Translations under genes and position numbers: made by a program
Notes under the pieces: generated by a model
Seen by the model: the letters and a program-made list of their open reading frames with translations, nothing else
Told to the model about the DNA's origin: nothing
Database searches by the model: none
Virus record (IMG/VR): IMGVR_UViG_3300006919_000043
Span: 1-64,000 of that record
Origin: a virus
Reading direction: 5' to 3' (one strand)
DNA: 64,000 nt
In this document: positions 11,573 to 34,928 of the stretch, piece by piece
How positions within the stretch are numbered: position 1 is the first letter of the stretch
Layout: every line of letters starts with the position of its first letter

Positions 11573-11738
11573 GACAGAAGGAATAACTGATGTGGATTGC
11601 CCCGATTGTGGGAGTCCTATGTATCGCTGGACTGATGGAGATCATCCAGTTAAGGGAATGACACCAAGACTCAAATGCACACAATGTGGTCGTTGGATAT
11701 ACCACACGCACCGTGTAATGGAGGCGATGGATAAATGA
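11556..11738 (+). CDS. small Zn-ribbon protein
   Basis: CPDCG...CTQCG. Confidence 0.65.
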   Translation: MMEIIKTEGITDVDCPDCGSPMYRWTDGDHPVKGMTPRLKCTQCGRWIYHTHRVMEAMDK

Positions 11739-16863: not shown

Positions 16864-17224
16864 AAATGACATCGCTTTGTTGTATTTGGCTACAAATGCG
16901 AGGTTTAGAATTGCCTCACGCTTGACCACAAGAAGCCAAACTGGCTACCAAATACGCCCCGAATGCGATATTATGGGAAGAAAGACAATACCCGCTAAAG
17001 TAAGCAAATTACTCAAGTCGCAAGGGCTACCAGTCCAGCAACGCTATACTAAACCCGAACATCTAACGAGGTTATTGCGTTTAGTAAAGCCATTCAAAGA
17101 CTTCACTAAAGATCCCGAAGGCTATGAAAGTGTGGTGAATTGGGAACATTGGGATGAGGAACCTTTGAAAACTCATGCTGATGTGCTTGACATCTTAGGG
17201 AGGTTGGAAAATGAATCTGTTTGA
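16856..17224 (+). CDS. degenerate single-domain LAGLIDADG-fold protein
   Basis: LLYLATNARFRIASRLTTRSQTGYQIRPECDI...LLRLVKPF echoes I-CreI-type proteins but has no acidic catalytic residue. Confidence 0.45.
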   Translation: MNENDIALLYLATNARFRIASRLTTRSQTGYQIRPECDIMGRKTIPAKVSKLLKSQGLPVQQRYTKPEHLTRLLRLVKPFKDFTKDPEGYESVVNWEHWDEEPLKTHADVLDILGRLENESV

Positions 17225-17780
17225 AGATGAGTCATTGGACACAAACGACTGGTTCTCCGTGTGCCCTAATTCTGTGGATATTATATTTGAGGAAAAGAAG
17301 CATGGTTTGTTTTACACTATGCGCCAATTTATGACAAACTGGGATAGGTTGGAGGTTGCTAAGATGTTGTTGAAAACACAATCAAGCGAGCGCATGATAC
17401 TCGATACCATGAATTGCACAATCCCCAACAATCCAGTAATACAATTTGTAGCAAGGGAATTGACGCTTCGTGTTGACCCTAAGATCTTATTCACTATACT
17501 GGCACTGTCAAACGACGGCACCAGTCGAGGTAAGATATTGTTTCCCGATAAGCAGAAGGCTGTGCCAAAGCACCTGCTGAAAGTGTTTGGGTTGCGGCCA
17601 ACCGAAGGTGAGTGGTTTGAGCCAATTACTGGGAGAATAGAGAATGTTCGGGCTGTCGTTTCACTGTTGAAAGACAGCGATTATGAACACATCATACATG
17701 ATAAACCAACGGTCTTAAATTTTGAAGAAGAACAGGGCACTGCGACCCTGTTTAGCGGTGAATGGGGGTCAAGACAATGA
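17211..17780 (+). CDS. hypothetical protein, possibly an RFC large-subunit C-terminal (collar) remnant
   Basis: LFYTMRQFMTNWDRLEVAKML and C-terminal ATLF; lies directly upstream of RFC-S. Confidence 0.4.
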   Translation: MNLFEDESLDTNDWFSVCPNSVDIIFEEKKHGLFYTMRQFMTNWDRLEVAKMLLKTQSSERMILDTMNCTIPNNPVIQFVARELTLRVDPKILFTILALSNDGTSRGKILFPDKQKAVPKHLLKVFGLRPTEGEWFEPITGRIENVRAVVSLLKDSDYEHIIHDKPTVLNFEEEQGTATLFSGEWGSRQ

Positions 17781-17802: not shown

Positions 17803-17837
17803 CCCCTATTGGGTTGAACCCTGCGAGAGATGATACT

Positions 17838-18797
17838 ATGACGCAATTATGGATGAAACACAGACCCGACCGATTGAACGATATGGTTGGGCTTGAGGAA
17901 TTGAAACTTGATGTTCCTAACTGGGTTGTCTATGAGCAAAACAAGCACAAACTCCGATGTGGTGGTGTTATCTTCTTTGGGTCAAGCGGCACTGGTAAAT
18001 CCAGTGGTGCGAGAGCCATAGGTATGGATCTTTTGGGCGATTCATTCTCGCAGAACTTTCACCCCTTCAATGCCTCCGATGATAGAGGAATACAATTTAT
18101 CCGTAACAGGTTGAAGCCTCTTGCTGAACAGCGAGCCGTTGGGCATGATTTCAAGATTATATTCCTTGATGAAGCCGATGGGTTGACTAATGATGCTCAA
18201 GACGCACTTAGAGAAATCATTGAGTCAACGGGCACACATGTCCTTTGGATATTGGCGTGTAACCGTATTGGTCGCATTATCCCAGCCTTGAGGTCAAGGC
18301 TACCTGCATACAATTTTACTCCCTTGAACGGTGATGATGCCGAAGGTTTCATCTTGCGTATCATAGAACAAGAGGACTTGCCTCAAGAATGGCTTGACTC
18401 CGTTCCACAATTGGTGAAGAAATACAAAGGTGATATGCGTGCCTGTTTGAAACTTCTCCAAACTCTCAATCCAAAAGACGCTGATGCTTTGAGTCGAAGC
18501 GTGGAGAAAGATACAGACGGGATTAGAAGTCTTTACTCGGCTATGGCTGGTGCTGGTGAATTGATTGAATTATCAAGCGATTTAGTAATACAGCGAGGTT
18601 ATTCCCGTGATGATATTATTGATGGTATGCACGATGCGATTATCCATCATTACAATGAAGGTGATGTGGGGCAAGCGGTTGCCCTCAAGCACCTTATGAT
18701 ACTGGGTCAGTGGGCGGCAAGATCTTCCGACTGGCTATCAAGCGATGTCCTATTCCTCCAATCAATGGTTGGGGATTACAGACAAAGAGGTTTTTGA
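17838..18797 (+). CDS. rfcS: replication factor C small subunit (clamp loader)
   Basis: W..KHRP, GSSGTGKS, NASDDRGI, LDEADGLT.DAQ.ALR, LRSR, GDMR. Confidence 0.95.
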   Translation: MTQLWMKHRPDRLNDMVGLEELKLDVPNWVVYEQNKHKLRCGGVIFFGSSGTGKSSGARAIGMDLLGDSFSQNFHPFNASDDRGIQFIRNRLKPLAEQRAVGHDFKIIFLDEADGLTNDAQDALREIIESTGTHVLWILACNRIGRIIPALRSRLPAYNFTPLNGDDAEGFILRIIEQEDLPQEWLDSVPQLVKKYKGDMRACLKLLQTLNPKDADALSRSVEKDTDGIRSLYSAMAGAGELIELSSDLVIQRGYSRDDIIDGMHDAIIHHYNEGDVGQAVALKHLMILGQWAARSSDWLSSDVLFLQSMVGDYRQRGF

Positions 18798-18798
18798 A

Positions 18799-20139
18799 AT
18801 GAGCGAAAATAGAGAATTAGGTAACGAATGTATTGAAGAAGCGAGCAAGATATTGGGTATCAGTGTTGAAGAAGCACGGGCATCCTTTGGTTCGTGGATG
18901 AACGAAACTTTCCCCGATATGTGGGATATGGTCGGTAAAACGATTGATGGTCTTGATGATGATGATTACAATGACTTTGCTGATATGTTCGTTTGTGCAA
19001 ACCGCCCAACAGGCGGTGGCGGTGGTTCCGGTGAGGAATGGGTCGGTGCATTCATTGGTTTTGATAGAAGAATTGACTTGATGAAAAGAAAGCGTGAAAT
19101 GGCTATTGACATAGCCACTGCTGATTTATCGGGTGCTATCAATAACGGTTTCACTTACAATGGTAACAAGGTCGGTATAGGTCGAGCCTTTACTGCTGAT
19201 GGTGTTTGGCGTGCTGAACACAGTGCGGGCACCTTCGTGTCCACTGTGGCTTCCGATACTACACCGGACTGGGTTATCCCTCTCAATGAGAAACTATCTA
19301 TTTGTATGCTCAAGCCGGACAATACCCCACAGCGTGCATCAGCACTGAAATCTGTATGGGCGTTTCATGGCAATACCAAAGAGCAATTCCTTGAGATCGG
19401 TCCGATCACAATCGCTGTTGAGGGTGCCTTTGAGGCCGCAAAGCATGACTGGAAACTATTTACTCCTGTAACCATTAAAGGTAAATTCGATGAAGAAGGT
19501 TGGAAGGGTAGCGGTGCTACTCTCACTGTTTCATCACCAAACGCTGAATATGGCCTTGACTGGGTTCCCGATGGCAAAAAGCGTGAAACCTGTGAAAAAC
19601 TATTCCAGCCCGACCAGTATCTTACTACCACTGGTGAATGCGCTGTGAATGTCAAGGATTTACTACAACACCACTTAGATAACCGAAGGGAATCTTATGT
19701 TGACCGTAATGGTGTTCAGCGATATGATGGTGCTTTGGTTGCTGTTGTGGGTGGTGTCATGGACATCAACCATGAAGGCCGTGAAACCGAATGGGATCCA
19801 ACAGGCCGTGATTACTACTTATCTATCAGCACACAGGTTCTAAGGCGGGAAAATCCAAACGCTCGCATTGGTATCAAAGTCGGTGGATTACTCAAAGAGA
19901 ATCACAATGGGCTATCTGTGCTGAAAGGTGGAGAATGGGTGCCGTTTGCTAAAGGCTCAAGAATTTGGGTTGTTGGCCGCACTGATTCATACATGAACCA
20001 AGACGGTGATGAGGTAGTCAGCATTCAAGCGCAGGGTATCTATGCCATCCCACACAAATCTATTCCAGCACGCAAGCCAAGCGAGGACAGCAACGATCTC
20101 GGCAACCTAAGTGGCTTCGGTGTCGGGGGTGATGAATGA
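18799..20139 (+). CDS. OB-fold ssDNA-binding (RPA-like) protein
   Basis: C-terminal OB-like strand run RIWVVGRT..VSIQAQGIYAIP; position within the replisome operon. Confidence 0.55.
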   Translation: MSENRELGNECIEEASKILGISVEEARASFGSWMNETFPDMWDMVGKTIDGLDDDDYNDFADMFVCANRPTGGGGGSGEEWVGAFIGFDRRIDLMKRKREMAIDIATADLSGAINNGFTYNGNKVGIGRAFTADGVWRAEHSAGTFVSTVASDTTPDWVIPLNEKLSICMLKPDNTPQRASALKSVWAFHGNTKEQFLEIGPITIAVEGAFEAAKHDWKLFTPVTIKGKFDEEGWKGSGATLTVSSPNAEYGLDWVPDGKKRETCEKLFQPDQYLTTTGECAVNVKDLLQHHLDNRRESYVDRNGVQRYDGALVAVVGGVMDINHEGRETEWDPTGRDYYLSISTQVLRRENPNARIGIKVGGLLKENHNGLSVLKGGEWVPFAKGSRIWVVGRTDSYMNQDGDEVVSIQAQGIYAIPHKSIPARKPSEDSNDLGNLSGFGVGGDE

Positions 20140-21335
20140 TGGGAACAGGATTCTTAGACGGCTTCAAAGAAAAGAAGGGTAACTACGAACCACCAACCAA
20201 AGAGGCTGGTGGTAACAAGAAGGCTAAGGCGAAGCCAAAGGCCAAACCTGCACCGAAGAAGCAAGAGCAAATTCCTATCGAGGCATTGGTTGACGATGCA
20301 CCGCCAGTGGTTGACCACGAACCGGAGGAACCGGTTGAGGAACCTATGCCACAGCCACCTGCAAAGCCTAAACCTTCACCGAAGGCCAAAGGCGACTCTC
20401 ACCTTGACCGTGTTAATTCTTCTATTGCTAACATGATTAGACAGGCAAGAAACAGCGTTCCAATCCAAACCTATGTTATGTGTGGTATCGCTGGTATGCC
20501 TAAGACTGGTAAGACTGGTATGGTTCTTGACAGCCTTACAGAACAAGAAGTGCAAAATGGTGCTGAAATATGGCATATTGATTTTGATTTGGGTGGAGAA
20601 ACTACAAAGGCGGCTCACCATCAAGACAAGATGGACAACCTTGTGGTGCTTAATCCGTGGGTTTTCAATTACGGACAAAGCCGTGTGCCTTACGATTTCC
20701 CAGCCACATTCCAACAGACTATTGACATACTAAAGACAGCACAGGCTCAAATGCAAGCACAGAATGATTACTATGCTGAACATGGTAAGATGCCTAACCC
20801 GTATCTAAAGACTGTCGTGTTCGATGGTGCCGACCATTGGTTACATATCACTGAAACCTGTATGAAGGTGGATGATTTGGATTTGGGTGTTGACGGTATT
20901 GCTGTATCAAGCAAGAAGGCTACTACACAGATCGGTCGTTTCAATTGGAATATCCGTGCTACACGATACCAAACCGCTATGGTTGCTCTCCGTGAGTTAT
21001 GTCGTGGTGGTGTTCACTGTTATGTCATTACACACATGAAGCCAGCATACGATTCATCGGGTAATGAATTATCCGGACAGCATTCTCCAAAGTGGCTCAA
21101 AGATACCGAAGGACATCTTCAACAGGTTATTCATACCGAGTTAGAAGAAGAAAGGAATGAGCAAGGTGAATTGACTGGTGTAGTGCGTGGCTACGCTGTT
21201 ATTGTTGCCGACAGGACTTCACTGCAAGCCAGTGGTCGTGTTCTGTTGTTTGAGCGCAACCAAGACGGTGGTGTTTGGCACGGATGGCAAGGACTCAAGA
21301 CTGGCGATTTCAATGTTTTAAGGGGCGATGAGTGA
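20136..21335 (+). CDS. RecA-fold/AAA_24 (Sak4/RadA-like) ATPase with Pro/Lys-rich N-terminus
   Basis: GMPKTGKT, WHIDFDLG, TVVFDG, YVITHMK. Confidence 0.75.
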   Translation: MMGTGFLDGFKEKKGNYEPPTKEAGGNKKAKAKPKAKPAPKKQEQIPIEALVDDAPPVVDHEPEEPVEEPMPQPPAKPKPSPKAKGDSHLDRVNSSIANMIRQARNSVPIQTYVMCGIAGMPKTGKTGMVLDSLTEQEVQNGAEIWHIDFDLGGETTKAAHHQDKMDNLVVLNPWVFNYGQSRVPYDFPATFQQTIDILKTAQAQMQAQNDYYAEHGKMPNPYLKTVVFDGADHWLHITETCMKVDDLDLGVDGIAVSSKKATTQIGRFNWNIRATRYQTAMVALRELCRGGVHCYVITHMKPAYDSSGNELSGQHSPKWLKDTEGHLQQVIHTELEEERNEQGELTGVVRGYAVIVADRTSLQASGRVLLFERNQDGGVWHGWQGLKTGDFNVLRGDE

Positions 21336-22129
21336 TGGTGGTTGCTGTAACTTTACATCAACACACAATCAAGCATTTCCTAAATGCGTTCAAAGGCATG
21401 GATGATTTGGTTATCAGCATAGGTGAAAGCGGTATTAGTGCGGCTGGAACAATGGACAAAGCATACTTTGTATCTCGCCACTTTCAATATCGTAACGAAG
21501 AAGAATGTCACACTGCTGGTGACATAGCACTGGGTCAATTGTCCACCTTTGCCGCACTTGTTGAAGAATGTGGTAATGGTGGTGAATTGGTTAAGATCTC
21601 CTTAGACGACAAAGGCGTGTTAAGGGTGGTTGGTGACAGTCAAGATTTCAAAATGCCGACAATCCAAACCGCTACATCACAGGCCGGTGTATCAGTAATC
21701 AAAAAACAAATTGCCCTGTCAGCCGACACGGAATACAAGACATTTGGTAACGATGAAATACCGTTTGACTTTGGTATGTGGTTTTGGGCACATGACTTTA
21801 CGACTTTACAGACGACTGGTAAATCAATACAGAACGGTGCATTGTTTTGCCTATCGGTCGAAAGCGACAACACACTCAATCTCGGTGTTCAGCGTGATTC
21901 TATCCGTATGAATGCCAACCTTGAACCCGAACCTCCACACACTGTGTTAAACGACACAGTAATGTGGTTTGGAAAGTGGCTGATGGATGCTCTTAGGGCT
22001 ATGCCTAAGACTGGGGTAATCCATTTGCACGGTGGTAACAATACGCCTTTGCTCATAAGACATGAGTTAGACGGCATCATGTCCACCACCGCTATCATCG
22101 CACCCCGCCAAGAGGAAAGCGGGGAGTAA
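21332..22129 (+). CDS. pcn: PCNA-like sliding clamp
   Basis: 265 aa; C-terminal IHLHGGNNTPLLIRHE..TAIIAPR is typical of PCNA; directly upstream of PolB. Confidence 0.8.
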   Translation: MMVVAVTLHQHTIKHFLNAFKGMDDLVISIGESGISAAGTMDKAYFVSRHFQYRNEEECHTAGDIALGQLSTFAALVEECGNGGELVKISLDDKGVLRVVGDSQDFKMPTIQTATSQAGVSVIKKQIALSADTEYKTFGNDEIPFDFGMWFWAHDFTTLQTTGKSIQNGALFCLSVESDNTLNLGVQRDSIRMNANLEPEPPHTVLNDTVMWFGKWLMDALRAMPKTGVIHLHGGNNTPLLIRHELDGIMSTTAIIAPRQEESGE

Positions 22130-22131
22130 TT

Positions 22132-24459
22132 TTGATTGTCACAACATACGATACCGAAGATCAAGATTGTCCTTCAATCCACATTCGTTTCCGCAACCAA
22201 GACGGAAAGGTGATGGAGAAGGTTGTGGATAAATACTATCCATACTTCTCCATTTCAGCCGACAGTGATATGGCACATATCACCCAACTCTTTGACGAAA
22301 GGTGTCATGGTTGGTATGTTGGTGCTGTTGAGGCAAACTCACTGCCCACGAAGGAATACCCCGAAGGGAGGAAATTGATACAGGTGGTTGCACCCGACTT
22401 GAAGGCACTGAAACAGATGCGAGATGTTTGTGATGAAACATGGGAGGCAGACATTGGTTATGCCGACCGGTATTTGATAGATGAGATCGCACCCGAAGAT
22501 TTCCCCGACTGGTTTCCGAACATGGTTCGTGCCGGTGGCCTTGACTTAGAATGGAATAAAGACGGTGAGATTACTGCTATGGGTTTCACCACAGATGGTG
22601 TGGTTGTAAAGCAGTGGGCGTGGCATCCAACTATGCCCGAAGTCGGTCTTATGCGATTTTCGCCAACCGATGATGTAGCCAGCGTGTTCTCTAATGAAAG
22701 GGATATGCTGGTTTCTTTTGCCAACGCATTTCAAGAATTAGACCCCGACCTAATTACAACATGGTCGGGGAACCGTGCCGATTGGCCTAAGATATACGAA
22801 AGATACAAACACCATGACATCGGTTTAGATTGGATTTCGCCGTTGGCTGGGGTCAGTGCTTCGCCACCAATGATGCACTTGCCGAGAGATGGTCGCTACA
22901 ATGATGGTAGCCAAATCATACTCGGTCGCATGGTTTTAGACTTAGCGGATCGAAATCATGGTTTTGAGCGTGTATGGAAAGACAGTGGCAACGGCCAATT
23001 ATCCGACAGGCGTTTAGGTGCTGTTGGTAAAGTGGCGTTCCCTAATAATCCCGAATTGTGGAAAATAGATACGGGTGGTTTTACGCATCACGAATTGTGG
23101 CTTGACCACTTTGCTCACTTTTTGAAGTATCACCGTGCCGATGTTTTACTAACAGACAAATTGGATAGAGAGTATCATGTAGCACGCTTCTTCATGGCAT
23201 TACAACGAGTATGTGGCGTTTCTTTCTCATCAGTATTTACTGTCAGCAAATTCGCAAGAGGACTATTGCGAAGGCGTGCCACATGGGCGGCACCCACTGG
23301 AACATACAAGAAGGGCGTTGGTGATTCATACGGTGGTGGCTTTGTTCCGCACCCAAAGACTGGGCGTTTCTATGATGTAGCCTGTTTCGATTTCCGAGCC
23401 ATGTATGCTGAAATACAACGTGGTAACAACATCAGCCCCGAAACCATACGCTTTGGCACAGGAGATGGAATCCGTGAATTGGGTAATGGCACTTATTGGT
23501 ATCAAGATGAGCGTGGGGTATTGCCCCAACTGCAAATGGATCTTGCCGATGCGAGGAATGCCGCCAAAGCGGAGATGAAAAAACATGCACCGGAATCATC
23601 CGAGTATGCCGGTTTCAACACACTACAATTGGCCTTCAAGCGTGCCGCGGCGAGCGTATATGGCCTAATGGGTCATACTGGGCACGGTGAGTCGCACAAG
23701 ACTGTTGCCTCAACAATTACCTATGTGGGTCGCCAATTGACATCACGCTTGATGGAGATATGCGAGGACATGGGTTTTGAGCCATTGGCTGGACATACCG
23801 ACAGCGCATACATACAAATTGGCGATAACGATGGTGAGAATATCGCTGATGCTTTGACACAAACCATACAGAAGGAGTTTGACTCCGATAGGTTTGTTGT
23901 CGAGTATGAGAAGCACATGAGGGCGTGGGTAGCGGCTAAGAAGAATAGAAACTTTGGCTGGGTTACTTGGCCGAAAGAAGGACTACACTGCACAGGCTTT
24001 GAGATGAAAAAGTCAAATGCGGCACAGATAACAAAAACAATACAAGAAAATTCCTTTGAGGCTATGTGTAAAGACAATGCCGATGAGTCATACATACAAG
24101 GGCTGGTCAATGATGCAATCGCTGATGTCCGAAATATGAACCGCAAGGATCTTGTTATGCGCTCTCGCTTAGGTGCGAAAGCCGAATCATATTCACAAAA
24201 CGGTGGTTTTCAAGGTGCCGCTAAGAAATACAACCGCTTGAACCCCAACAATCGCTTCGACAAAGGCGATGGTGTTCCTCATGTATATACCACAAAGGGC
24301 ATTGAAGCGTTCAAGACCGACGAAGAATTAAGCAAATTAGACATAGATTTCACCACAGTGATAGAAAAGCAAATTATAGCACCCGTTTCCCTTATCTTTG
24401 AGGCGATGGGTTGGCGTTTGCCGTCAGCCGATGGTGCTAAACCACAGGAGTGGTGGTAA
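22132..24459 (+). CDS. polB: family B DNA polymerase
   Basis: ExoI LDLEW, ExoII W.G.RADWP, ExoIII YHRAD, polymerase motifs A DFRAMY, B K.AAASVYG, C GHTDS; C-terminal EWW. Confidence 0.95.
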   Translation: MIVTTYDTEDQDCPSIHIRFRNQDGKVMEKVVDKYYPYFSISADSDMAHITQLFDERCHGWYVGAVEANSLPTKEYPEGRKLIQVVAPDLKALKQMRDVCDETWEADIGYADRYLIDEIAPEDFPDWFPNMVRAGGLDLEWNKDGEITAMGFTTDGVVVKQWAWHPTMPEVGLMRFSPTDDVASVFSNERDMLVSFANAFQELDPDLITTWSGNRADWPKIYERYKHHDIGLDWISPLAGVSASPPMMHLPRDGRYNDGSQIILGRMVLDLADRNHGFERVWKDSGNGQLSDRRLGAVGKVAFPNNPELWKIDTGGFTHHELWLDHFAHFLKYHRADVLLTDKLDREYHVARFFMALQRVCGVSFSSVFTVSKFARGLLRRRATWAAPTGTYKKGVGDSYGGGFVPHPKTGRFYDVACFDFRAMYAEIQRGNNISPETIRFGTGDGIRELGNGTYWYQDERGVLPQLQMDLADARNAAKAEMKKHAPESSEYAGFNTLQLAFKRAAASVYGLMGHTGHGESHKTVASTITYVGRQLTSRLMEICEDMGFEPLAGHTDSAYIQIGDNDGENIADALTQTIQKEFDSDRFVVEYEKHMRAWVAAKKNRNFGWVTWPKEGLHCTGFEMKKSNAAQITKTIQENSFEAMCKDNADESYIQGLVNDAIADVRNMNRKDLVMRSRLGAKAESYSQNGGFQGAAKKYNRLNPNNRFDKGDGVPHVYTTKGIEAFKTDEELSKLDIDFTTVIEKQIIAPVSLIFEAMGWRLPSADGAKPQEWW

Positions 24460-24460
24460 G

Positions 24461-25408
24461 ATGATAACATATAGAGAACCCCGACCATATCCCGTGCCCG
24501 ACCATGACGATTTATTCTCATGTTACAACTGGCACCCCGATATGCCGGACAATGTTATTCTCCGTGCGAGTAAATCATCGGTGGGTGACTTTACCTTCTG
24601 TAAGCAACAATACGCAATCAGCAGGGTTCTCGGCATGAAAGAGCCACAGAATGAGAACATGCTACGAGGAACAAATGTCCACGATAGTGTCGAATTGTTT
24701 TACCAGCGTGTTGATGTTGACAAGGCAAGTGAAGAACACGACCTTGAAAGATACTTTCGTGATTGTATTCCACATTCCAGTGAGATACGCTCGGCTCAAG
24801 ATAATTTCTTCTTAGAAGAGGACTTACACATTGACAGATTCTTAGAGAAAGAGATTCAGCGTTTTAACGCAAGCGACCCACAACACTTCTTACCAACTGG
24901 CAACGAATTGGTAATTAACCATGTTCATGAAATAGAAGTGGATGGTATATCACAAAGGGTGCATTTCACCGGTATCATAGATAGGATATTTACCAACCCC
25001 GATGGGTCATTACACATACACGAATTGAAAACTGGTGCATGGAAAGATAGCGCAAGTAAATTTAGAAACATGAGAAAGGAAATGGCTTTCTATGTATGGT
25101 TGCTAAGAAAGTCCGACCCAACCAATGCAATCACACACTGGGGTTGGGATCACACTAAAGGTGTCAAGAATACCGACACCTTTGACGCTGAAATGTTCCG
25201 TTATGTTGAGGCTGTCCGTGCAAAAGAGATAGGCGAAATGCTGGGCGACATACAGAATCTAATCCGCACGCACAGGAAATACAAAGGTGATGATGATATT
25301 AGCATGTTCCCCTTGTTACCATCGGGTGCCCAATATATGATATGCGATCCGTGGTGTGGCTTGAAAGAATTTTGCCCACGCTACCACCAACACATAGGAG
25401 ATGAGTAA
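24461..25408 (+). CDS. Cas4-like PD-(D/E)xK nuclease
   Basis: FCKQQY, RGTNVH, GIIDRI, HELKTG, C-terminal CDPWCGLKEFC (Fe-S staple). Confidence 0.85.
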   Translation: MITYREPRPYPVPDHDDLFSCYNWHPDMPDNVILRASKSSVGDFTFCKQQYAISRVLGMKEPQNENMLRGTNVHDSVELFYQRVDVDKASEEHDLERYFRDCIPHSSEIRSAQDNFFLEEDLHIDRFLEKEIQRFNASDPQHFLPTGNELVINHVHEIEVDGISQRVHFTGIIDRIFTNPDGSLHIHELKTGAWKDSASKFRNMRKEMAFYVWLLRKSDPTNAITHWGWDHTKGVKNTDTFDAEMFRYVEAVRAKEIGEMLGDIQNLIRTHRKYKGDDDISMFPLLPSGAQYMICDPWCGLKEFCPRYHQHIGDE

Positions 25409-26621
25409 TATGACACGAAACACGGACAAGGACTTCGGACATGGCAAGCATATTGACATTATGGTTGGCGATTGTGTTGAAAGCATGAAATCACTACCGG
25501 ATAAGAGTGTGCAAACTTGTATCACCAGCCCACCATACTGGGGGTTGCGTGATTACGGTCATGAAAAACAGTTAGGTATGGAAAAGACACCCGAAGAATT
25601 TGTGGCTAATATGGTCGAAGTGTTCCGTGAAGTGAGGCGTGTCTTGCGTGATGATGGCACGCTATGGCTCAATCTTGGAGATAGTTATGCCAGTGGTAAA
25701 GCAAGATATTCCACGAAAGAGCAATCATTTCTTGGTGGTAAAAGAAATGACGCTAAGTTAGGGGCACTGCAAGACGGTAAGCGTGCTTGTGTTAAACATC
25801 ACGATTACTTGAAGGATAAAGATCTTGTTGGCATACCGTGGCTTGTGGCGTTTGCATTACAGCGTGATGGCTGGTGGCTAAGACAAGATATAATTTGGCA
25901 TAAGCCAAACCCAATGCCCGAATCGGTAAAGGATAGATGCACTAAATCTCACGAATACATTTTCTTGTTGACCAAATCGCCAACATACTACTATGATGAT
26001 GAAGCGGTCAAAATTCCAGTCAATGACCCAAGCCGAAAAAACTACCAAAGTGGTGCGAGGACTAACGGTTTCAATTTAGATAGGAATGATAATGACATGG
26101 CCGAGCGCATGAAAGGCGTAATCTTCGACAAAAAGAAAAAGCGTTCTGTATGGTCGGTAAAAGTAAAACCATTCAAGGAGGCGCACTTTGCCACTTATCC
26201 CCCCGAATTGATTGAGCCGTGTATATTGGCATCAACATCGGAACACGGGTGTTGCGCTGAATGCGGTGCCCCTTATGTTAGAGAAATAAAAACCACTTAC
26301 CCTAAGATGAGAGGTATAGAAGCAAGAGATGTGCCGGGTCAAAACAAGCATGGCTCATTTGGTGCCACAAGGTTTGACGACCCAATAGTAACCGAAACTA
26401 CGGGTTGGAAACCATCGTGCGATTGTAATGCTGAAATATCAAGATGCACCGTATTAGATCCGTTTGGTGGTTCGGGAACCACTGGGGCGGTTGCGCTAAA
26501 GCATGGGAGAAAAGCAATACTGTGTGAGTTAAACGAAGAATATGCAAAGATAATACCAAAGAGGATAGAATCTATCACTGGTTTGTCGGCAACACAAAAG
26601 ACATTCGATGATTGGTGGTGA
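25401..26621 (+). CDS. beta-class amino (N4-C/N6-A) DNA methyltransferase with C-terminal PIP box
   Basis: TSPPYW catalytic motif precedes the DPFGGSGTT SAM motif; Cys insert CCAEC..CDC; ends QKTFDDWW. Confidence 0.92.
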   Translation: MSNMTRNTDKDFGHGKHIDIMVGDCVESMKSLPDKSVQTCITSPPYWGLRDYGHEKQLGMEKTPEEFVANMVEVFREVRRVLRDDGTLWLNLGDSYASGKARYSTKEQSFLGGKRNDAKLGALQDGKRACVKHHDYLKDKDLVGIPWLVAFALQRDGWWLRQDIIWHKPNPMPESVKDRCTKSHEYIFLLTKSPTYYYDDEAVKIPVNDPSRKNYQSGARTNGFNLDRNDNDMAERMKGVIFDKKKKRSVWSVKVKPFKEAHFATYPPELIEPCILASTSEHGCCAECGAPYVREIKTTYPKMRGIEARDVPGQNKHGSFGATRFDDPIVTETTGWKPSCDCNAEISRCTVLDPFGGSGTTGAVALKHGRKAILCELNEEYAKIIPKRIESITGLSATQKTFDDWW

Positions 26622-26862
26622 TACAATGACAATGAGTGACCATCAAGACAGTGAGCATTTTGCCGGTGTGCGAAATGAAGATGCTATTCTTAAAATGCTG
26701 GACAAGGCCGAGCGCAAGCAAAATATACACTACACTAAAATGCAAGACGGGAGAAGATCCGAGCGCATTTTTCACATGAGAAACTACAAAGCGTTGGAGG
26801 GTGTGGTCAAAGCCCTGCGATGGACATTAGGTGATAAAGAAATAGACCATCCGTTGGAGTGA
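26608..26862 (+). CDS. hypothetical protein
   Basis: Coupled small ORF between the MTase and primase. Confidence 0.65.
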   Translation: MIGGDTMTMSDHQDSEHFAGVRNEDAILKMLDKAERKQNIHYTKMQDGRRSERIFHMRNYKALEGVVKALRWTLGDKEIDHPLE

Positions 26863-27932
26863 ATGAAATGGCGCACATGTTTAGACACTTTCCCCGTGAG
26901 ATAGACATGCGTAAGCGTAAGGTGGTTCATTCAATGGATGAATTACAGCACTATGTTACAGCAACAAACGGTGCTGACAATCTAACCACTACTGTGTATG
27001 GCTTTAGACAATTGAAGCCGAATGGTCATAGAGGGGAATACAACACTGCTGTGATACCACACTTTGTCATGGACTTTGACTATGAACGGGCACTGAATGA
27101 AAATACATCAGCGAAGCAAGCAGGTGAAGAGTGTTTCAAGCAAGTCTATGCTTTGCATCAGCATCTTGTGTCAAACGACTGGCGACATGCTATGTTCTTC
27201 ACTGGGGGCGGTGTCCACATTTGGGTTAGCCTTGACAAGACATACGAGCCTACACCGGCTGAATTGGGCGACTTCTTATTCAGTGGGCGTAAATTGATTG
27301 AGAAGTGGGTCAAGACATGGGATTTGACCACGCTTGACCCTGTTGTTTCTTTCCGACCCGACCGGCACATTCGTATTCCAAACACATACAATTTCAAGCG
27401 TGGGCTTTGGGGTATGCCTCTTTCGACACAAGACATAGAGCAGGGCTGGGAGTATGTATTGAAGAAGGCTCAAGAACCACATGGTGGTATGACCATGTAT
27501 GGCAAACATGGCATGGCTATGAAAGTCAAGAAGCGTGATCCTAACCAGCCATTTGCGGCTGAAAAGATTGATGTGAACATGAAGCGTATTGGTAAAATGA
27601 CAGTGTTACCCTGTTTGGCATCAGCCGCATGTGAGAAAGGTAGTAACCCCACCCATGAAGCAAGGGTGTATTTGGTTCAGTATCTTCAAGACAGACTACG
27701 CTCATTTGCACGCCCTCCTTCTTCGTCACCAATTACCAAGTCAAGTATCAAGAATACAATCGCATCTTTCATAGCCGACTTACAATGGTCGGACTACAAT
27801 GAGGAAACTACACGGGGCTACATCGAACACAGCGTCAACAGGGCATACATCACACCCTCTTGTCGCACCCTCTATGAGAAGGGGTATTGTATAGGGAGAT
27901 GTCCGTTTTACGACAGGAGTGGTGGACAGTGA
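26859..27932 (+). CDS. archaeo-eukaryotic primase, PriS-PriL fusion
   Basis: AEP motifs DFD, FTGGGVH, DRHIRIPNT; PriL-CTD Fe-S motifs LPCL, HEAR, PSC..L...GYC...C. Confidence 0.88.
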   Translation: MNEMAHMFRHFPREIDMRKRKVVHSMDELQHYVTATNGADNLTTTVYGFRQLKPNGHRGEYNTAVIPHFVMDFDYERALNENTSAKQAGEECFKQVYALHQHLVSNDWRHAMFFTGGGVHIWVSLDKTYEPTPAELGDFLFSGRKLIEKWVKTWDLTTLDPVVSFRPDRHIRIPNTYNFKRGLWGMPLSTQDIEQGWEYVLKKAQEPHGGMTMYGKHGMAMKVKKRDPNQPFAAEKIDVNMKRIGKMTVLPCLASAACEKGSNPTHEARVYLVQYLQDRLRSFARPPSSSPITKSSIKNTIASFIADLQWSDYNEETTRGYIEHSVNRAYITPSCRTLYEKGYCIGRCPFYDRSGGQ

Positions 27933-28000
27933 ATTTTTCAATTGGAAATTTGATTTTTCAATTGGGAAATTCAATATCAATTTCCAATTGGATAATGAAA
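27931..28000. repeat. AT-rich element with two direct and one inverted CAATTGG(G)AAATT copies
   Basis: gaattttt-CAATTGGAAATT-tgattttt-CAATTGGGAAATT-caatatc-AATTTCCAATTG. Confidence 0.7.
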
Positions 28001-28014
28001 AAAAGGTGAAAAAT

Positions 28015-28137
28015 ATGGCGAGATTAACAGCAAGATTTTGTGTGAAGAAGGACTGTAATAAAATAGCATTAAGCGGATTCCGTAAGTGCGGTGATTGTAT
28101 GTTTGGGAGAACCAAAAAGGTCGGTGAAGAAGAATGA
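28015..28137 (+). CDS. small Cys-rich protein
   Basis: ATG 28015 after GGTGAAAAAT (same as at 4056); CVKKDC..CGDC. Confidence 0.55.
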   Translation: MARLTARFCVKKDCNKIALSGFRKCGDCMFGRTKKVGEEE

Positions 28138-28454
28138 GTGAAGATATAGAGAAGATCCGTGCTGAAAAGATAGCGGCACTACAAGCAAAGATGAAGAAGG
28201 CTGATGAAGAAAACGAAGAAATAACCGCCATGAAGCAAGAATTTACATGGTCGGATTTCGGATATGAAGAACCACCATTCGGTTTCCGTGAAAGCGAAGA
28301 AATGGCGGGTGCATTCGATATTTGCCAAGAGCGTCAATCCGTTGCCATAACTGGCGACCCAAGATTCGCTATGCTTGTTACGGACTTACTGAACAGGGCT
28401 AAGAAAGAAGAACTCATCGTTAACCACAAAGCAGGGGAGATAAAGGATGAGTAA
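28134..28454 (+). CDS. hypothetical protein
   Basis: ATGA coupling. Confidence 0.65.
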   Translation: MSEDIEKIRAEKIAALQAKMKKADEENEEITAMKQEFTWSDFGYEEPPFGFRESEEMAGAFDICQERQSVAITGDPRFAMLVTDLLNRAKKEELIVNHKAGEIKDE

Positions 28455-29151
28455 GATACTATACATTGACAACCGTGAAAGGTCGGGTCTTGAACAGGCA
28501 GTGAAAGATAAGGCCGACAAAGCCGGTATCAAGTGGGAAGTAAATCAAAATCTTATCACTGATTACTCATACGGGCAAATTGGCATTGAGGCCAAAAGCA
28601 TAGATGATTATTTTTCCTCACTACAAGGCGGGCACCTTGCCAGTCAATTAGCGAGCATGGATGAAAACTACAACCACATGATACTGGTCATTCACGGTAA
28701 GTTAGACGCTTACATATCCCGTTTGAAGAAGCGTGGTAATAGAACACCATACGCACGCATACAGGCTCAATTTGTGGGTTCGCTTGCGAGGCTTGATGTG
28801 GACTATGATATGACCATCATGCACTTTCCTACGCCCTCCACAGCCGCCTATTGGATTGTTCAGCGTTGTGCTAAAGACGGCACACTGGGTAGTATATCCA
28901 CATACAGAACAATGAGGCGAACATCAAGCGAGGATATACGCATTGATGGGCTAAGGGCACTTGGTTGTAGCGAAGCGATAGCGAAGCGGTTGCTCAAGGA
29001 GTTTGGTTCAATCACCGAGATCGCTGGTGCTAATGCAAAGGAATTGATGGCTCTTGAAGGCATAGGAAAAATCCGTGCTAAGGCAATTGTAAATGCTCTA
29101 AATAGTGAGTCGGCTGTGTCAAAAGAGAAGGTAAAAATCACCAACGCCTAA
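28447..29151 (+). CDS. ERCC4/XPF-family structure-specific nuclease with HhH domain
   Basis: IDNRE, IEAKSIDD..SL..GHL.SQ, C-terminal LEGIGKIRA. Confidence 0.88.
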   Translation: MSKILYIDNRERSGLEQAVKDKADKAGIKWEVNQNLITDYSYGQIGIEAKSIDDYFSSLQGGHLASQLASMDENYNHMILVIHGKLDAYISRLKKRGNRTPYARIQAQFVGSLARLDVDYDMTIMHFPTPSTAAYWIVQRCAKDGTLGSISTYRTMRRTSSEDIRIDGLRALGCSEAIAKRLLKEFGSITEIAGANAKELMALEGIGKIRAKAIVNALNSESAVSKEKVKITNA

Positions 29152-29201
29152 GCGTTGATATATGAGAGGCAAATAGGGCAAAGTCCAACGGAGGTAGTGA
29201 G

Positions 29202-30740
29202 ATGGGAATATCAGTTAATAGTGACATGAATGATATAATGGCGCAACAAAGACAGTGGGATGATTACCAAGTCGTAGCAAGTGAAAACGAAGGTTCAAGG
29301 TTTATTCGTGGATATATTGAGCGTTTCAATACTGTATCGTTTTTCAACGAATACGCTGGCCTGTTGTCCTTCTTTTTCGTCATGGGTCAATTGTGTGCCC
29401 CATACATGAGAATACCCATACACGGCACTTTCATTGATTGCAGGGTGCATATTTATTGGATTCAACAATCAAGGACTGGTAAATCAATTGCATGGGAATT
29501 TACGGACAGGTTGTTAGATGCTTGCGGTATTGAGAGCGATACTTTCACCGCAGGTTCGGATGCTAAACTCATAGGAACAGTCCAGCAAACACCCGTTGTT
29601 GATGAGAATGGTCGCCCAACGGGTGAAGTCAATCACATCACTGTGCCGGGTTTGCTGAACGGCTACAAGACACTACTGTTCGATGAGGCTTCTATATTGT
29701 TAAATGACTCAAAAGCGCACTTTTCCGATAAGATCCTTTACCTTCAACAAGCGATGGCACCTTTAGGTTCACGAACCAATGTATTGGTTAAGCACCTTGT
29801 TGGTGGCGATGTGAGAACACCATCGGGTGTTTCACTGTGGATGACAACATTCCCGCCAAAAGACATCATGGCACATGTGCTGGACAAAGGTTTCTTTCAG
29901 CGTGTATTCTTATTCCAAAACGACATATCCAGTGAACAGCGACAAACCACCAGCGAACACCGTGTGGGTGGTGCTTATGTCCGTGTGCGTGAGGAAATCA
30001 TGGACTACGGCAATTTGGCTGAATATCTTACAGCGTGTGTCAATGATGTAAGAGAACGCCTGTTTGATGCTATGGGTCTTTCGTGGCAAACTGTGGAGAT
30101 TAGAAACGAAGAAGGCGAGTTAGAAGAACGCCGTATAAGCCGTGAAGATGTGTGGGCACAGATGGAAGATGGTGAGCGTGAGCAAGCCGCTATGAGGCAC
30201 GCACACGACATATTCACCGTATCATCGGGCTACCACCCAGCGATACTCAACGCTGTTGACGATTACTATGGCTTGGTCAACAACATAGCCAGTGAGAATG
30301 TCCGTGAAACAGCACTGTCATTCTTGCCTAACATAGAAAACTATACTATGATTTTCTCCAACTTGATTGCGGTTCTCATGCGTTCACCACAAATAACTGA
30401 AGATCATGTGATGATGGCGAGCGAGATAATCTTCGATAACTTACACAATCTAACTATTTGGCTTGAACAAAAAGAATCGGCTAAGGATAGAAAGAAGGTT
30501 AGTGCCGAGCGTGCGTCATGGATGGCCGCATTCCGCCAGTGTCAAAAGTATGTCAATGAGGCTGATGGTATCGAGAGAGTCATGCAATCCGATCTTCTCA
30601 AGGTGTATGCGGCACAACAATCGGTTGCCGATATAACAGCACAGCGAAGATACAACGCACTGCGTAAAGGTGGGCAGGTTGAGGTTGTCAAGCAAGGAAA
30701 AGGCGGTCGCAATTATGTATCTTTCAAGTGGGGGAATTGA
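29202..30740 (+). CDS. MCM-like AAA+ replicative helicase (divergent, no typical N-terminal domain)
   Basis: SRTGKS Walker A, T.AGSDAKLIG, PGLL, LLFDEA Walker B, LQQAM, FFQR. Confidence 0.7.
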   Translation: MGISVNSDMNDIMAQQRQWDDYQVVASENEGSRFIRGYIERFNTVSFFNEYAGLLSFFFVMGQLCAPYMRIPIHGTFIDCRVHIYWIQQSRTGKSIAWEFTDRLLDACGIESDTFTAGSDAKLIGTVQQTPVVDENGRPTGEVNHITVPGLLNGYKTLLFDEASILLNDSKAHFSDKILYLQQAMAPLGSRTNVLVKHLVGGDVRTPSGVSLWMTTFPPKDIMAHVLDKGFFQRVFLFQNDISSEQRQTTSEHRVGGAYVRVREEIMDYGNLAEYLTACVNDVRERLFDAMGLSWQTVEIRNEEGELEERRISREDVWAQMEDGEREQAAMRHAHDIFTVSSGYHPAILNAVDDYYGLVNNIASENVRETALSFLPNIENYTMIFSNLIAVLMRSPQITEDHVMMASEIIFDNLHNLTIWLEQKESAKDRKKVSAERASWMAAFRQCQKYVNEADGIERVMQSDLLKVYAAQQSVADITAQRRYNALRKGGQVEVVKQGKGGRNYVSFKWGN

Positions 30741-30741
30741 T

Positions 30742-31287
30742 ATGAAAGGAATGGCTGTATTGTATGATTTTGAATTTGAAGATGGCTACCGTAAAGATGC
30801 CGATATTTGGCTCATCGCCACATGGGATGGCAACAAAGCGGTTGTTTATACCGATGCGTCTATGAGCGAAAAGATCCTAAAGGCTGAATTAAAAGACTTA
30901 TCGGAATGGGATATTAATGATGATGAATATGTTGGTCACAATTTGCATAGCCTGTTTGACGGCAAGGCATTTGATATTCTCAAAGCAACCAAACAGGCCA
31001 GTGCGCCTGTGCTTCAAAATGAAGGTAAGCGTTTTCAATTATATGATTTAGCAAGGTGGAACGGTGTGCGTGGCATACCCATTGAGTTTGTTACACGAAT
31101 GAGGAAAGCAACCGCATGGTTTAGAGGCCAGCACATAAAGTCGGCAAGATGGGCAATCGAAGATGCCATAATGTGTCATGACCTGTTCAATAAAGTGAAA
31201 AGGAAAGGACATGTTAGATTTCTTGACGCAAAGACCGGCAAACGGCCTTCGGCCAGTGTTTCGTGGTCAATTGCAGAAGAGGAATAG
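30742..31287 (+). CDS. degenerate RNase H-fold (DnaQ/YprB-like) exonuclease
   Basis: YVGHN, FDIL, L.DLA.WN, W..G......WAIEDA.MCHDLF. Confidence 0.5.
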   Translation: MKGMAVLYDFEFEDGYRKDADIWLIATWDGNKAVVYTDASMSEKILKAELKDLSEWDINDDEYVGHNLHSLFDGKAFDILKATKQASAPVLQNEGKRFQLYDLARWNGVRGIPIEFVTRMRKATAWFRGQHIKSARWAIEDAIMCHDLFNKVKRKGHVRFLDAKTGKRPSASVSWSIAEEE

Positions 31288-31289
31288 GA

Positions 31290-31514
31290 ATGCCTTACCA
31301 ATGGTGGGAATGTGGCACCAAGAAGTGCGACAAGAAAAAAAAATGGTCAATTGCTAAAAGGCCGGGATGCCGAAACTGTGGTCGAAAAAAGAATATGGAG
31401 ATAATGGAACCTCAACCTCCACCACCGAAAGACTTTTTCAAGCAAGACCGTATAGAGGCCGCAGATCGTGTGTTAAAGGGCTGGATTGATACCTTCAAGG
31501 GTCGCTCAAAATAG
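31290..31514 (+). CDS. small Zn-ribbon protein; last gene of the + arm
   Basis: CGTKKC..CRNCG; stop overlaps the convergent MTase stop. Confidence 0.6.
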   Translation: MPYQWWECGTKKCDKKKKWSIAKRPGCRNCGRKKNMEIMEPQPPPPKDFFKQDRIEAADRVLKGWIDTFKGRSK

Positions 31515-32861
31515 ACGCTGTTGTAGTGTAGTCGGCATTTGTAGTCCTTTCAACCCGAACATCTCCACCTGTGGGAATTTGTTTGATTTTGGCTTACGAA
31601 GCCACGGATATAAAGTGTAGCCACTGTCTAACGCATCTTTGATATATTCCTCTAATGGTTGGTTCTTATCCTTAGCATACATGTAGTTAGACAGTATAGA
31701 TGGTCCGGAATGTTCCCTGCCTAAGCGCAAAATACCACGCTGGAAATCATCGTATGTTCTCCCCAACTGCTGTAAGCCCGTAGCACCATAATCCATATCA
31801 CGGGATATGTAAGGCGGATCTAGATACAACAGGTCGGTGGGTCGTAACAAATCACCGATGTCTAACGCATTACCCTGTGTAATATCCACGCCTTTGTAGC
31901 GTGGTGCGTAAGCATCGAGATTTATTTTACGACTCATAAAAGGAAAAGCACGGAAGTCCTTTGCTTTCTTTTTCTCCGCTTCACTGAACCCATCCCACGA
32001 ACCCTGTGCGTGGTATCTGTTGAATTGTTCCATAGTGGCTTGACTGTTATCTCGGAATTTTTGGTTGGGGTATCGGCCTTCTGTATATGGCACACGATAA
32101 TCGCCTTCAAAATTCTTCATGGGCACTTCTTTGCCTTTCTCGTTCATTTCGGTGCGACCCTGCCAATCTGTGCCTCTCCAATCGGTGCGGAAACTTGCTA
32201 AGTTATTTCCTACAAACAAGCGAGCCATTCTCAACATTTCCTCATCGGTCATGTCCTCTCCATGCACATCACGCCTCATTCTCAAATGGTTCAATTCGGC
32301 AAAGTTATCATCTAACTCCTGTTGATTTTGAGGAATTACTACATCACCCATGCCTCTCTTGGCCTGTCTATGTATGTTCACTATATCGGGATTCATGTCA
32401 TTAATCAGCCCAGTGCCACGATTCATACCTAACACGAATGAACCACTACCACCCATAGCCTCAACGGGTCTATCCCATTCACCTAACTTTGATGCCATTA
32501 CACGAAACTTAGGCATCTCACTGGTCTTACCCCCCTCCCAATTGATGAAACTTGTGAGCATATTGTTTTCCGAATCAGTAAATCCTCTCATAGCATCAAA
32601 GATAGGTTGAGGGTCTTGTCCGGCCAGCACTGCGTTACGCATAGCCATGAGGGGCGTTCCCTCACGCCTACCAATAGAACCCTCTCTTTGCGCCTTTGTG
32701 GGCTTGAAAGGCGGGGCTGGTAGTGCTTGCCCTTCTTCTGTGAGTAAGCGCAAGGATTCGACAATCATAGGGTCTAATTCGTCTATGTCCTCATACTCAA
32801 CTCCGTTGAATACAATACCTTTCATGATCGACCACGCTTCGGAGAACGCATCACGATTCAT
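31506..32861 (-). CDS. Dam/D12-class N6-adenine DNA methyltransferase with insertions
   Basis: NWEGGK, EAMGGSGS, INDMNPDIVN, YLDPPY, LSN. Confidence 0.85.
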   Translation of the reverse strand: MNRDAFSEAWSIMKGIVFNGVEYEDIDELDPMIVESLRLLTEEGQALPAPPFKPTKAQREGSIGRREGTPLMAMRNAVLAGQDPQPIFDAMRGFTDSENNMLTSFINWEGGKTSEMPKFRVMASKLGEWDRPVEAMGGSGSFVLGMNRGTGLINDMNPDIVNIHRQAKRGMGDVVIPQNQQELDDNFAELNHLRMRRDVHGEDMTDEEMLRMARLFVGNNLASFRTDWRGTDWQGRTEMNEKGKEVPMKNFEGDYRVPYTEGRYPNQKFRDNSQATMEQFNRYHAQGSWDGFSEAEKKKAKDFRAFPFMSRKINLDAYAPRYKGVDITQGNALDIGDLLRPTDLLYLDPPYISRDMDYGATGLQQLGRTYDDFQRGILRLGREHSGPSILSNYMYAKDKNQPLEEYIKDALDSGYTLYPWLRKPKSNKFPQVEMFGLKGLQMPTTLQQRLF

Positions 32862-32872
32862 AAACCAACGCC

Positions 32873-33034
32873 TCACTTTTTCGTATGCCTAAGACCCGAC
32901 CAGCATATCTCTTGTAATTCGGCATCATCTTCAAAGATAGTGAAATTCAATTCATCGGTGTTAATTGTATCATAAGCAATCCAAGTCACAATAAAGCCAA
33001 CTATCATTCCACCTACAAACAAATATCCTATCAT
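32873..33034 (-). CDS. small single-TM membrane protein (53 aa, not in ORF track)
   Basis: MIGYLFVGGMIVGFIVTWIAY then acidic tail; ATGA overlap with the upstream gene. Confidence 0.65.
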   Translation of the reverse strand: MIGYLFVGGMIVGFIVTWIAYDTINTDELNFTIFEDDAELQEICWSGLRHTKK

Positions 33035-34587: not shown

Positions 34588-34928
34588 TATCTCACTTCCA
34601 TTACTACATCTATTCTTACTTCATTGGTAGCGTTCTTACTTATTGGTATGAAAGAGGATCTAAACGCTGGGTCGTCTAACGGTGTGCTACCGTGTATCAC
34701 GACTTCTTTGATTGATTGCGAAGATACTTGGTCGGTTCCAAATATTGCATTGACCGATATGGTTCTATCATCAACACGCTGAACCACAGGCGTTTTAGTC
34801 AATGCAACATTACCTACACCGTTGTTCCTTCTTGACGCTTCTCCACCTGTTGTTCCAAGACTCATGTTTTTCATAAGAGTCTGTAAATGGTCTGTTAATT
34901 TTGCTTTTATTGAATCTAATATTGGCAC
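34587..34928 (-). CDS. putative baseplate/tail protein
   Basis: 113 aa, SLGT.G..IKEV..F.PISK..EVRID. Confidence 0.55.
   Translation of the reverse strand: MPILDSIKAKLTDHLQTLMKNMSLGTTGGEASRRNNGVGNVALTKTPVVQRVDDRTISVNAIFGTDQVSSQSIKEVVIHGSTPLDDPAFRSSFIPISKNATNEVRIDVVMEVR

Follow-up and report, generated by a model that had tools for sequence, protein, structure and literature searches.

A PIP-box-like C-terminal tail on the DNA methyltransferases of an uncultured marine virus and its relatives: a candidate tether to a viral sliding clamp

The DNA analysed here, referred to as the window, comprises the first 64 kb (64,000 nucleotides) of the 77.7-kb IMG/VR virus record IMGVR_UViG_3300006919_000043, which derives from an uncultured marine tailed virus and has an estimated completeness of 73%. 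The element under study is a DNA methyltransferase gene at positions 25401–26621 (+ strand), and in particular the short peptide, QKTFDDWW, with which its product ends. The gene belongs to a same-strand replication module encoding an AAA+ clamp loader, a clamp with the fold of PCNA, a family B DNA polymerase (PolB), a Cas4-like nuclease, the methyltransferase and a PriL-like protein. The peptide resembles the PCNA-interacting peptide (PIP) box, and closely similar peptides end methyltransferases of four families in related viruses.

The methyltransferase and its terminal peptide

The gene encodes a beta-class N6/N4 DNA methyltransferase of 406 amino acids (aa), here P0001, with no internal stops. 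The translation matches PF01555 (N6_N4_Mtase; expectation value E = 3.8e-49, 168 bits against a cut-off of 26.7) and phrog_67 (E = 3e-77), and sequence matches among solved structures include CcrM (E = 7.6e-17), M.RsrI, M.PvuII and N4CMT chains. The catalytic motif IV, SPPY, occupies residues 43–46 (within TSPPYW, residues 42–47; positions 25527–25538, + strand), and the S-adenosylmethionine-binding motif I, DPFGGSGTT, residues 353–361 (positions 26457–26483, + strand). S43, P44, P45 and Y46 of the former and D353, P354, F355, G357 and T360 of the latter are invariant in the homologue alignment, and motif IV precedes motif I, which is the beta-class order and the arrangement expected of a PF01555 member. 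The enzyme is active-looking. Motif IV reads SPPY in the N4-cytosine enzyme N4CMT and DPPY in the N6-adenine enzyme CcrM (PMC10406627). N4-methylcytosine is on this basis the more likely product, and a preliminary description of the locus, made from the letters alone, had likewise remarked that SPPY often indicates this base; the Ser in motif IV agrees with that remark, which is a rule of thumb and not a proof. No gene for a cognate restriction enzyme was found nearby, which makes this an orphan methyltransferase.

For comparison we used 38 related viral loci, of which 32 share the same synteny and were fetched with the clamp as bait, while 6 were collected around a Dam-like gene described below. 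Between motif VIII and motif I the window enzyme carries a variable Cys-rich insert (CxxC ... CxC; residues 284–349, positions 26250–26447, + strand), a probable target-recognition element. The insert is found in P0001, P0002 and the enzyme of locus L019, and is missing from those of L002, L023 and L018. In the sister virus L002 (91–97% similar) the same enzyme, at L002:14043–15053, is a 77%-identical orthologue that lacks the 66-residue insert and diverges at residues 205–240, whereas the last 57 residues, tail included, are 98% identical. The difference is a recent exchange of what is probably the recognition region. Among the orthologues the tail has been kept even though this region was swapped or deleted.

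The tail itself, residues 399–406, is encoded by the last eight codons (positions 26595–26618, + strand), which are followed by TGA; the open reading frame (ORF), its SPPY motif and its terminal QKTFDDWW are all as first described. In a structure model of moderate quality (predicted local distance difference test, pLDDT, 63) the last helix spans residues 379–393 and residues 396–406 have pLDDT below 50, which places the tail outside the catalytic fold. Homologue alignments stop at about residues 390–400, and the Pfam and BLAST matches also end short of the tail. We propose that these last ~11 residues serve as a flexible docking peptide, a linear motif of PIP-box type. The preliminary description had spoken of a canonical PIP box, and this wording is only partly borne out. 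The motif is anchored by Gln at position 1 (Q399), a residue kept in 19 of the 20 methyltransferase tails of the virus group, and it ends in an aromatic pair (W405 and W406 at positions 7 and 8). Position 4, however, is Phe402 and not Leu, Ile or Met; most relatives have Leu there (QRTLFDW, QRSLFEW, QQTLF), and at positions 7 and 8 they often have a single aromatic residue (a ..DW end) or a short L-[FWY] end in place of the Trp-Trp pair. The consensus of the lineage, Q-x-[TS]-L-F-[DE]-W or Q-x-x-L-[FWY], is accordingly shorter than the PIP box.

Orthologues in the related loci end in QKTFDDWW, QRTLFDW, QQTLF or (L)EQITDW, and the closest metagenomic homologues (53–98% identity) retain the tail past the last helix, as ATQKTLMDW, GQKRLFGGDWGF, TQETLF or QQTTLW. 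Conservation among homologues in clamp-encoding viruses, the observation on which the preliminary description had staked its reading, is thus clearly positive and stronger than it had proposed.

The same type of ending is found on methyltransferases of other families. We examined 533 distinct complete conserved ORFs of at least 100 aa from this genome and the 38 related loci, with methyltransferase families assigned by Pfam. They include 20 distinct complete methyltransferases: 6 SPPY-type beta, 6 DPPY-type beta, 4 C5 and 4 D12 enzymes. The last residue is F, W or Y in all 20, compared with 49 of the 513 other ORFs (p = 1e-19). The patterns Q..[LFM][FWY]$ or Q..[LFI].[DE]W(W)$, written with the data in view, match 19 of the 20 methyltransferases and 5 of the 513 others (p = 2e-29), and all five of these non-methyltransferase matches are the small protein encoded beside the clamp loader. 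With 20 of 20 aromatic ends and 19 of 20 pattern fits, we reject the possibility that the tail arose by chance.

In other clades the slot between the nuclease and the PriL-like protein holds a DPPY-type PF01555 enzyme ending in QRSLFEW, QTSLFDW, QKSLFDW, QTTLF or QTFLW, and elsewhere a C5 cytosine methyltransferase (PF00145) ending in QRTLFEW, QKTLW or QKSLW; an additional C5 enzyme, encoded upstream, ends in QMRLW. The window also encodes an alpha-class enzyme of the Dam family (D12), 456 aa long and ending in ..LQQRLF, at positions 31506–32876 (− strand). It matches PF02086 (E = 2.7e-9, 37.6 bits against a cut-off of 22) and, below the cut-off of 114.85, the dam model TIGR00571 (E = 3.3e-11, 43 bits), so that it is a divergent Dam member whose GATC specificity is an expectation from the family alone. 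It has a long N-terminal extension, and its gene is the last of the minus-strand arm, with no gene downstream. The D12 orthologues of clade B (64% identity) end in QTKLY or QRTLF. The presence of one terminal peptide on four unrelated folds points to convergence on function.

Beyond the related loci, the 120 best metagenomic homologues have 98 unique tails, 51 of which contain [LM]F, compared with 8.5 ± 2.7 in shuffled sequences, and this dipeptide is 64-fold denser in their tails than in the enzyme bodies. Among 61 homologues on other viral contigs, [LM][FWY] occurs in the last 15 residues of 33%, compared with 10% of other ORFs (p = 2e-6). The short tails of distant SPPY homologues from bacterial phages and metagenomes are strongly enriched in ..P(L/M)F.., QLDLL and QMDVF, and AAQLDLL, a peptide of the bacterial clamp-motif form, occurs on the homologue from Pseudomonas phage LESphi3. 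These distributions suggest that tails matched to the type of clamp may be a general property of the methyltransferase family.

The clamp and other proteins of the replication arm

The protein that we propose as the receptor of the tail is a putative sliding clamp of 265 aa encoded at positions 21332–22129 (+ strand), 3.3 kb upstream of the methyltransferase on the same strand. Its AlphaFold2 model (pLDDT 91, predicted template modelling score 0.87) was searched with Foldseek, and the top 50 matches were all archaeal or eukaryotic PCNA at E ~1e-14, with Pyrococcus furiosus PCNA at E = 3e-15; the Foldseek probability was 1.00. Alignment to Haloferax volcanii PCNA with VIA-align (Z = 21.2, root-mean-square deviation 3.2, 229 of 240 residues) covers the whole monomer with its two-domain fold. 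What the preliminary description called a viral PCNA is, by its modelled structure, a PCNA-fold viral clamp and not a demonstrable PCNA orthologue; a tblastn search against phages gave no match.

The AAA+ clamp-loader-like ATPase is encoded at positions 17814–18797 (+ strand; PF00004, E = 2.4e-12; PF13177 DNA_pol3_delta2, E = 3.4e-7). Directly upstream of it, at positions 17211–17780 (+ strand), is the small protein mentioned above, 189 aa long, with a conserved aromatic tail ..TLFSGEWGSRQ. It has no family match, and a protein-atlas search gave only scores below 0.9; from position and size it would be a clamp-loader accessory subunit. PolB (775 aa; positions 22132–24459, + strand) matches PF00136 (E = 1.5e-23), the domain ending at residue 749, and phrog_262 (E = 8e-55). 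The gene that follows, at positions 24398–25408 (+ strand), encodes a PD-(D/E)XK nuclease of the AddB/Cas4 family (PF12705, E = 1.4e-17). Its true start is probably near position 24461, because its homologues align from residue 22, and its stop is overlapped by the start of the methyltransferase. On the 3' side the methyltransferase gene is followed by an 84-aa ORF, a 357-aa protein with weak similarity to the primase large subunit PriL (positions 26859–27932, + strand; NF002588, E = 0.007; PF04104 at E = 0.0013 for the L003 orthologue) and an ERCC4-HhH nuclease. The order PolB/Cas4, methyltransferase, primase that had been given for this operon is thus as stated, except that the similarity behind the name primase is weak. 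Four proteins of the module, at positions 15415–16863, 18745–20139, 20136–21335 and 29202–30740, have no assigned function.

PolB also ends in an aromatic tail, SADGAKPQEWW (positions 24424–24456, + strand), which lies beyond the Pfam domain. The polymerase tails vary by lineage, being PQEWW in clades A and B and PQDWWN, PVSLW, AKPLF or AKPLW elsewhere, and in some viruses they vary together with the other tails. In L019, PolB ends in PLF and both methyltransferases in TLF; in L020, PolB ends in PLW, the methyltransferases in FLW and SLW, and the loader neighbour in FLW. Tails of the loader neighbour in relatives include QGALF, QDALF, GFLW and ATLW. In clade B a gene with a PAPS-reductase domain (PF01507, E = 4e-14; L003:13081–14037, + strand, with orthologues in L004–L015) lies between those for PolB and the nuclease. 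Its product ends in P(E/K)PKEWW or PKELW, which is a tail of the PolB type, and may be a clamp-tethered DNA-modification enzyme; the gene is missing from the window. Aromatic ends among real genes are limited to PolB, the loader neighbour, the methyltransferases, the PAPS-reductase-like protein and a 512-aa protein at positions 29202–30740 (+ strand).

This last protein ends with a conserved near-C-terminal aromatic motif, F-x-W-G. A 269-aa protein (positions 12833–13642, + strand) has SFIDxFG near its C-terminus, and relatives of a 222-aa protein (positions 11735–12403, + strand) have QQ(D/E)LF followed by EEE. Judged by these motifs, the three replication-arm proteins may be additional clamp clients.

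The window is organised in two arms, a plus-strand early and replication arm up to ~31.5 kb followed by a minus-strand structural arm. The early arm encodes a superfamily 1 helicase that resembles UvrD and exceeds 1089 aa (positions 25–3294, + strand) and a protein with an N-terminus resembling pyrimidine-dimer DNA glycosylase (positions 9704–10303, + strand; PF03013, E = 3e-4). The structural arm includes giant ORFs at positions 34928–44305 (3125 aa) and 44286–49625 (1779 aa), both on the minus strand and presumably encoding tail or fibre proteins. Many plus-strand genes have the Shine-Dalgarno sequence of the next gene embedded in their 3' coding end (for example those ending at 3294, 12403, 21335, 25408 and 28137), and stop and start codons often overlap. 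C-terminal Glu (EEE, GDE, GGE) is common among the conserved ORFs of the virus group.

Megablast of window positions 20000–32000 against GenBank phages gave no match, and a profile scan of genome contigs with the clamp yielded no relative and hence no clue to the host. The PCNA fold, the PriL-like and ERCC4-HhH proteins and the best matches of PolB, which are haloarchaeal tailed viruses at 23–24% identity, are the sole basis for an archaeal host, which together they suggest. Magroviruses carry PolB, a clamp and a loader (PMC5434244). The virus shares this set, but classical magrovirus identity was rejected in view of the absence of MCM and RadA matches.

Proposed clamp docking, its alternatives and the GATC-linked mark

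The shared peptide leads us to propose, as the likely explanation, that the tails dock the methyltransferases on the virus's own PCNA-like clamp and that the enzymes thereby mark new DNA at the replication fork. The tail Q-K-T-F-D-D-W-W-COOH would insert into the hydrophobic pocket of the clamp, and the PolB tail would probably dock on the same clamp with a poorer fit to the motif. The adjacent AAA+ loader would place the clamp at primer ends, and the clamp would stay on the newly made duplex. Tethering could in this way concentrate the methyltransferase on nascent viral DNA, which would be marked, and shielded from host restriction, during its synthesis. Every DNA methyltransferase of the virus group, whatever its family, would use such a tail, and probably the PAPS-reductase-like enzyme as well. 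The viral clamp is the most economical receptor because the C-termini of archaeal PolB and RFC and of the T4 and RB69 polymerases bind clamps. The preliminary description had already pictured a clamp-tethered methyltransferase, and comparison supports that picture well through the conservation of the tail, its occurrence on four families, the PolB tails and the clamp fold. We infer the identity of the receptor and the coupling of methylation to replication, as we do the modified base and the sequence that carries it.

Several observations weigh against this proposal. The clamp sequence, also when used as a 21-sequence profile, has no match in Pfam, PHROG or PDB, and conservation of the PIP pocket is assumed from the modelled fold. 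The PolB tail has neither the Gln nor the aliphatic residue, and only its acidic-Trp-Trp end is common with the methyltransferase. In L021 the tails do not agree: F is the last residue of PolB, and W that of both the loader neighbour and the C5 enzyme. The enzyme of Methanoculleus virus L4768, the nearest cultured relative, has no obvious PIP tail. The regular expressions for the tail were composed after inspection of the data, although the plain aromatic-end test agrees with them. Finally, the Trp-Trp end may double as a ribosome-binding-site constraint: the terminal codons TGG TGG TGA read GGTGGTGA, 6 bases ahead of a plausible start of the next gene, the ATG at position 26626.

This last point belongs to an explanation that denies the tail any docking role. 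The tail would instead follow from gene overlap or embedded Shine-Dalgarno sequences, belong to the structure of the enzymes at their C-terminus, or act as a signal for stability or degradation. The ending in Glu of 114 of the 533 conserved ORFs is in keeping with it, since it shows the imprint that the ribosome-binding site of a following gene leaves on 3' ends. Such a site, however, constrains only the last two or three codons and not Q-x-[TS]-L-F, and the D12 enzyme keeps Q-x-x-L-[FY] without any downstream gene, on which ground we reject a ribosome-binding-site or gene-overlap artefact as the only cause. Four unrelated folds cannot have a common structural C-terminal element, and Trp or Phe ends are limited to proteins of DNA transactions and are not genome-wide. 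We consider this explanation very improbable. A docking peptide with another receptor is also unlikely, if less so; the partner would then be host PCNA or the viral clamp loader, single-strand-binding protein, helicase or PolB. The evidence for a shared receptor leaves its identity unspecified, several conserved proteins of the replication module lack an assigned function, and LF-type tails occur on family members in phages without an obvious clamp gene, where a host clamp would be needed. On the other hand, Q-x-x-L-x-x-aromatic at the extreme C-terminus is a known ligand of PCNA-fold clamps, a polymerase tail is a classical clamp ligand in archaea and T4-like phages, and the difference between close viruses (LF in L019, LW in L020) is easier to understand with a virus-encoded receptor.

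What the enzymes write is a separate matter, on which word composition bears. Short words are avoided to an extreme degree in the window and in the related loci L002–L016. In the window AGCT and GTAC are absent (221 and 181 expected), ACGT and CGCG occur once each (116 and 102 expected), CTAG occurs three times (121 expected), and YCWGR occurs 11 times compared with 543 for YCWGY. All 11 surviving YCWGR sites and all 3 surviving CTAG sites overlap GATC. As all 14 survivors do so, we take a GATC-linked protective mark to be real. YCWGATC, with a 2-bp overlap, accounts for 60 of the 61 YCWGR sites that survive in clades A and B, and CTAGATC for all 7 non-redundant CTAG survivors there; clades C–E avoid other sets of words.

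The SPPY enzyme had been put forward as the best candidate writer of this mark. The comparison does not support that choice, the Dam-like enzyme being the one common to all mark-bearing viruses, and we lean somewhat towards the Dam-like D12 enzyme as the writer. The alternative, in which the SPPY enzyme places N4-methylcytosine in GATC and so protects the YCWGR and CTAG sites that overlap it, seems to us doubtful, although several facts speak for it. A motif IV that reads SPPY is of the N4-cytosine form; the genome record holds no C5 methyltransferase, so that no candidate cytosine methylase other than the SPPY enzyme is left in it; and in CTAGATC the two sites have just the C:G pair of GATC in common, which would put a cytosine mark within CTAG and an adenine mark outside it. 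By contrast, in YCWGATC, the form of nearly all YCWGR survivors, the adenine of a Dam-type mark lies inside the site. The footprint is identical (100% overlap) in clade B loci, where the slot holds a DPPY enzyme and the locus stretches examined contain no SPPY enzyme; the L002 enzyme, without the Cys-rich insert, goes with the same footprint; and all contigs of clades A and B that extend as far as the D12 locus encode that enzyme. A writer other than these two appears improbable.

If the clamp-docking proposal is correct, it would solve a kinetic race, as the virus needs each genome copy methylated before host restriction finds that copy. PCNA-coupled methylation is textbook knowledge for eukaryotic DNMT1 and has recently been demonstrated for 6mA in ciliates, whereas prokaryotic and viral methyltransferases are generally regarded as free enzymes. 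In a broader form of the proposal, for viruses with a sliding clamp of their own, the clamp supports both replication and the entire apparatus by which the virus marks its DNA, the tail is compulsory for any modifying enzyme, the tail code drifts with the clamp, and the beta-clamp motif on this methyltransferase family carries the scheme over to bacterial phages and cells. Coupling of methylation to replication would on that view be common among prokaryotes and viruses and have evolved separately from DNMT1. We regard this broader form as evenly poised between holding and failing. As a rule for annotation, a C-terminal Q-x-x-L-aromatic tail would flag clamp clients, including unrecognised DNA-modification enzymes, and the convergent gain of the tail by four enzyme families makes for a clean and directly testable prediction of clamp binding. 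The literature searched, which did not cover subscription journals, yielded no description of an archaeal, bacterial or phage DNA methyltransferase with a clamp-binding or PIP tail. PCNA-recruited methylation (DNMT1, Tetrahymena AMT6) and C-terminal clamp tails on replication and repair proteins are known.

Comparison with known clamp clients and methyltransferases

The viral enzyme shares with other PF01555 enzymes (CcrM, M.RsrI, M.PvuII and the rotifer N4CMT) the domain, the motif order, an SPPY or DPPY motif IV and an FxGxG motif I, and differs from them by its Cys-rich insert and its C-terminal docking tail.

The closest parallels to that tail are found in archaea, where PolB, the RFC large subunit, Fen1, RNase HII and Hef carry C-terminal PIP boxes of the form QxxLxxFx (PMC7776575). 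In both cases a short Q-x-x-hydrophobic-x-x-aromatic peptide stands at the extreme C-terminus outside the fold, the clamp is encoded alongside, and several clients share one motif. The viral clients, however, are DNA methyltransferases, which were not found listed among archaeal PCNA clients in the literature searched. The clamp, moreover, is encoded by the virus and has no likeness to PCNA at the sequence level, the consensus is shorter, and Trp takes the place of Phe or Tyr.

Replication-coupled methylation through PCNA relies on PIP boxes in DNMT1 and in the Tetrahymena AMT6 complex (PMC11761967), both of which resemble the proposed viral arrangement in that a PIP box on PCNA brings a DNA methyltransferase to new DNA. 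DNMT1 is a large C5 enzyme with its PIP box in the N-terminal region, AMT6 has one in an internal loop within an MT-A70 complex, and neither is homologous to the viral enzymes. The latter are small, of prokaryotic type and tailed at the C-terminus, and their purpose is probably anti-restriction self-marking and not epigenetic maintenance.

Among phages, the polymerase gp43 of T4 and RB69 binds the gp45 clamp by its extreme C-terminus, and gp55 and gp33 are also C-terminal clamp clients. The likeness to T4 extends to a virus-encoded clamp with a PCNA-like two-domain monomer, to hydrophobic C-terminal docking, and to a gene neighbourhood of a small protein, an AAA+ loader, the clamp and PolB; the size and position of the 189-aa loader neighbour recall gp62, the small subunit of the T4 clamp loader, or the PIP-bearing RFC large subunit. 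The known clients of the T4 clamp, in contrast, are the polymerase and transcription factors and not methyltransferases, and T4 Dam is not known to bind gp45. In bacteria the clamp-binding motif is QL[SD]LF, and the receptor would be the DnaN beta clamp. The bacterial-phage homologues of the viral enzyme carry ..PLF.., ..QLDLL.. and ..QMDVF.. at the same place as the tail described here, a likeness based on enrichment statistics.

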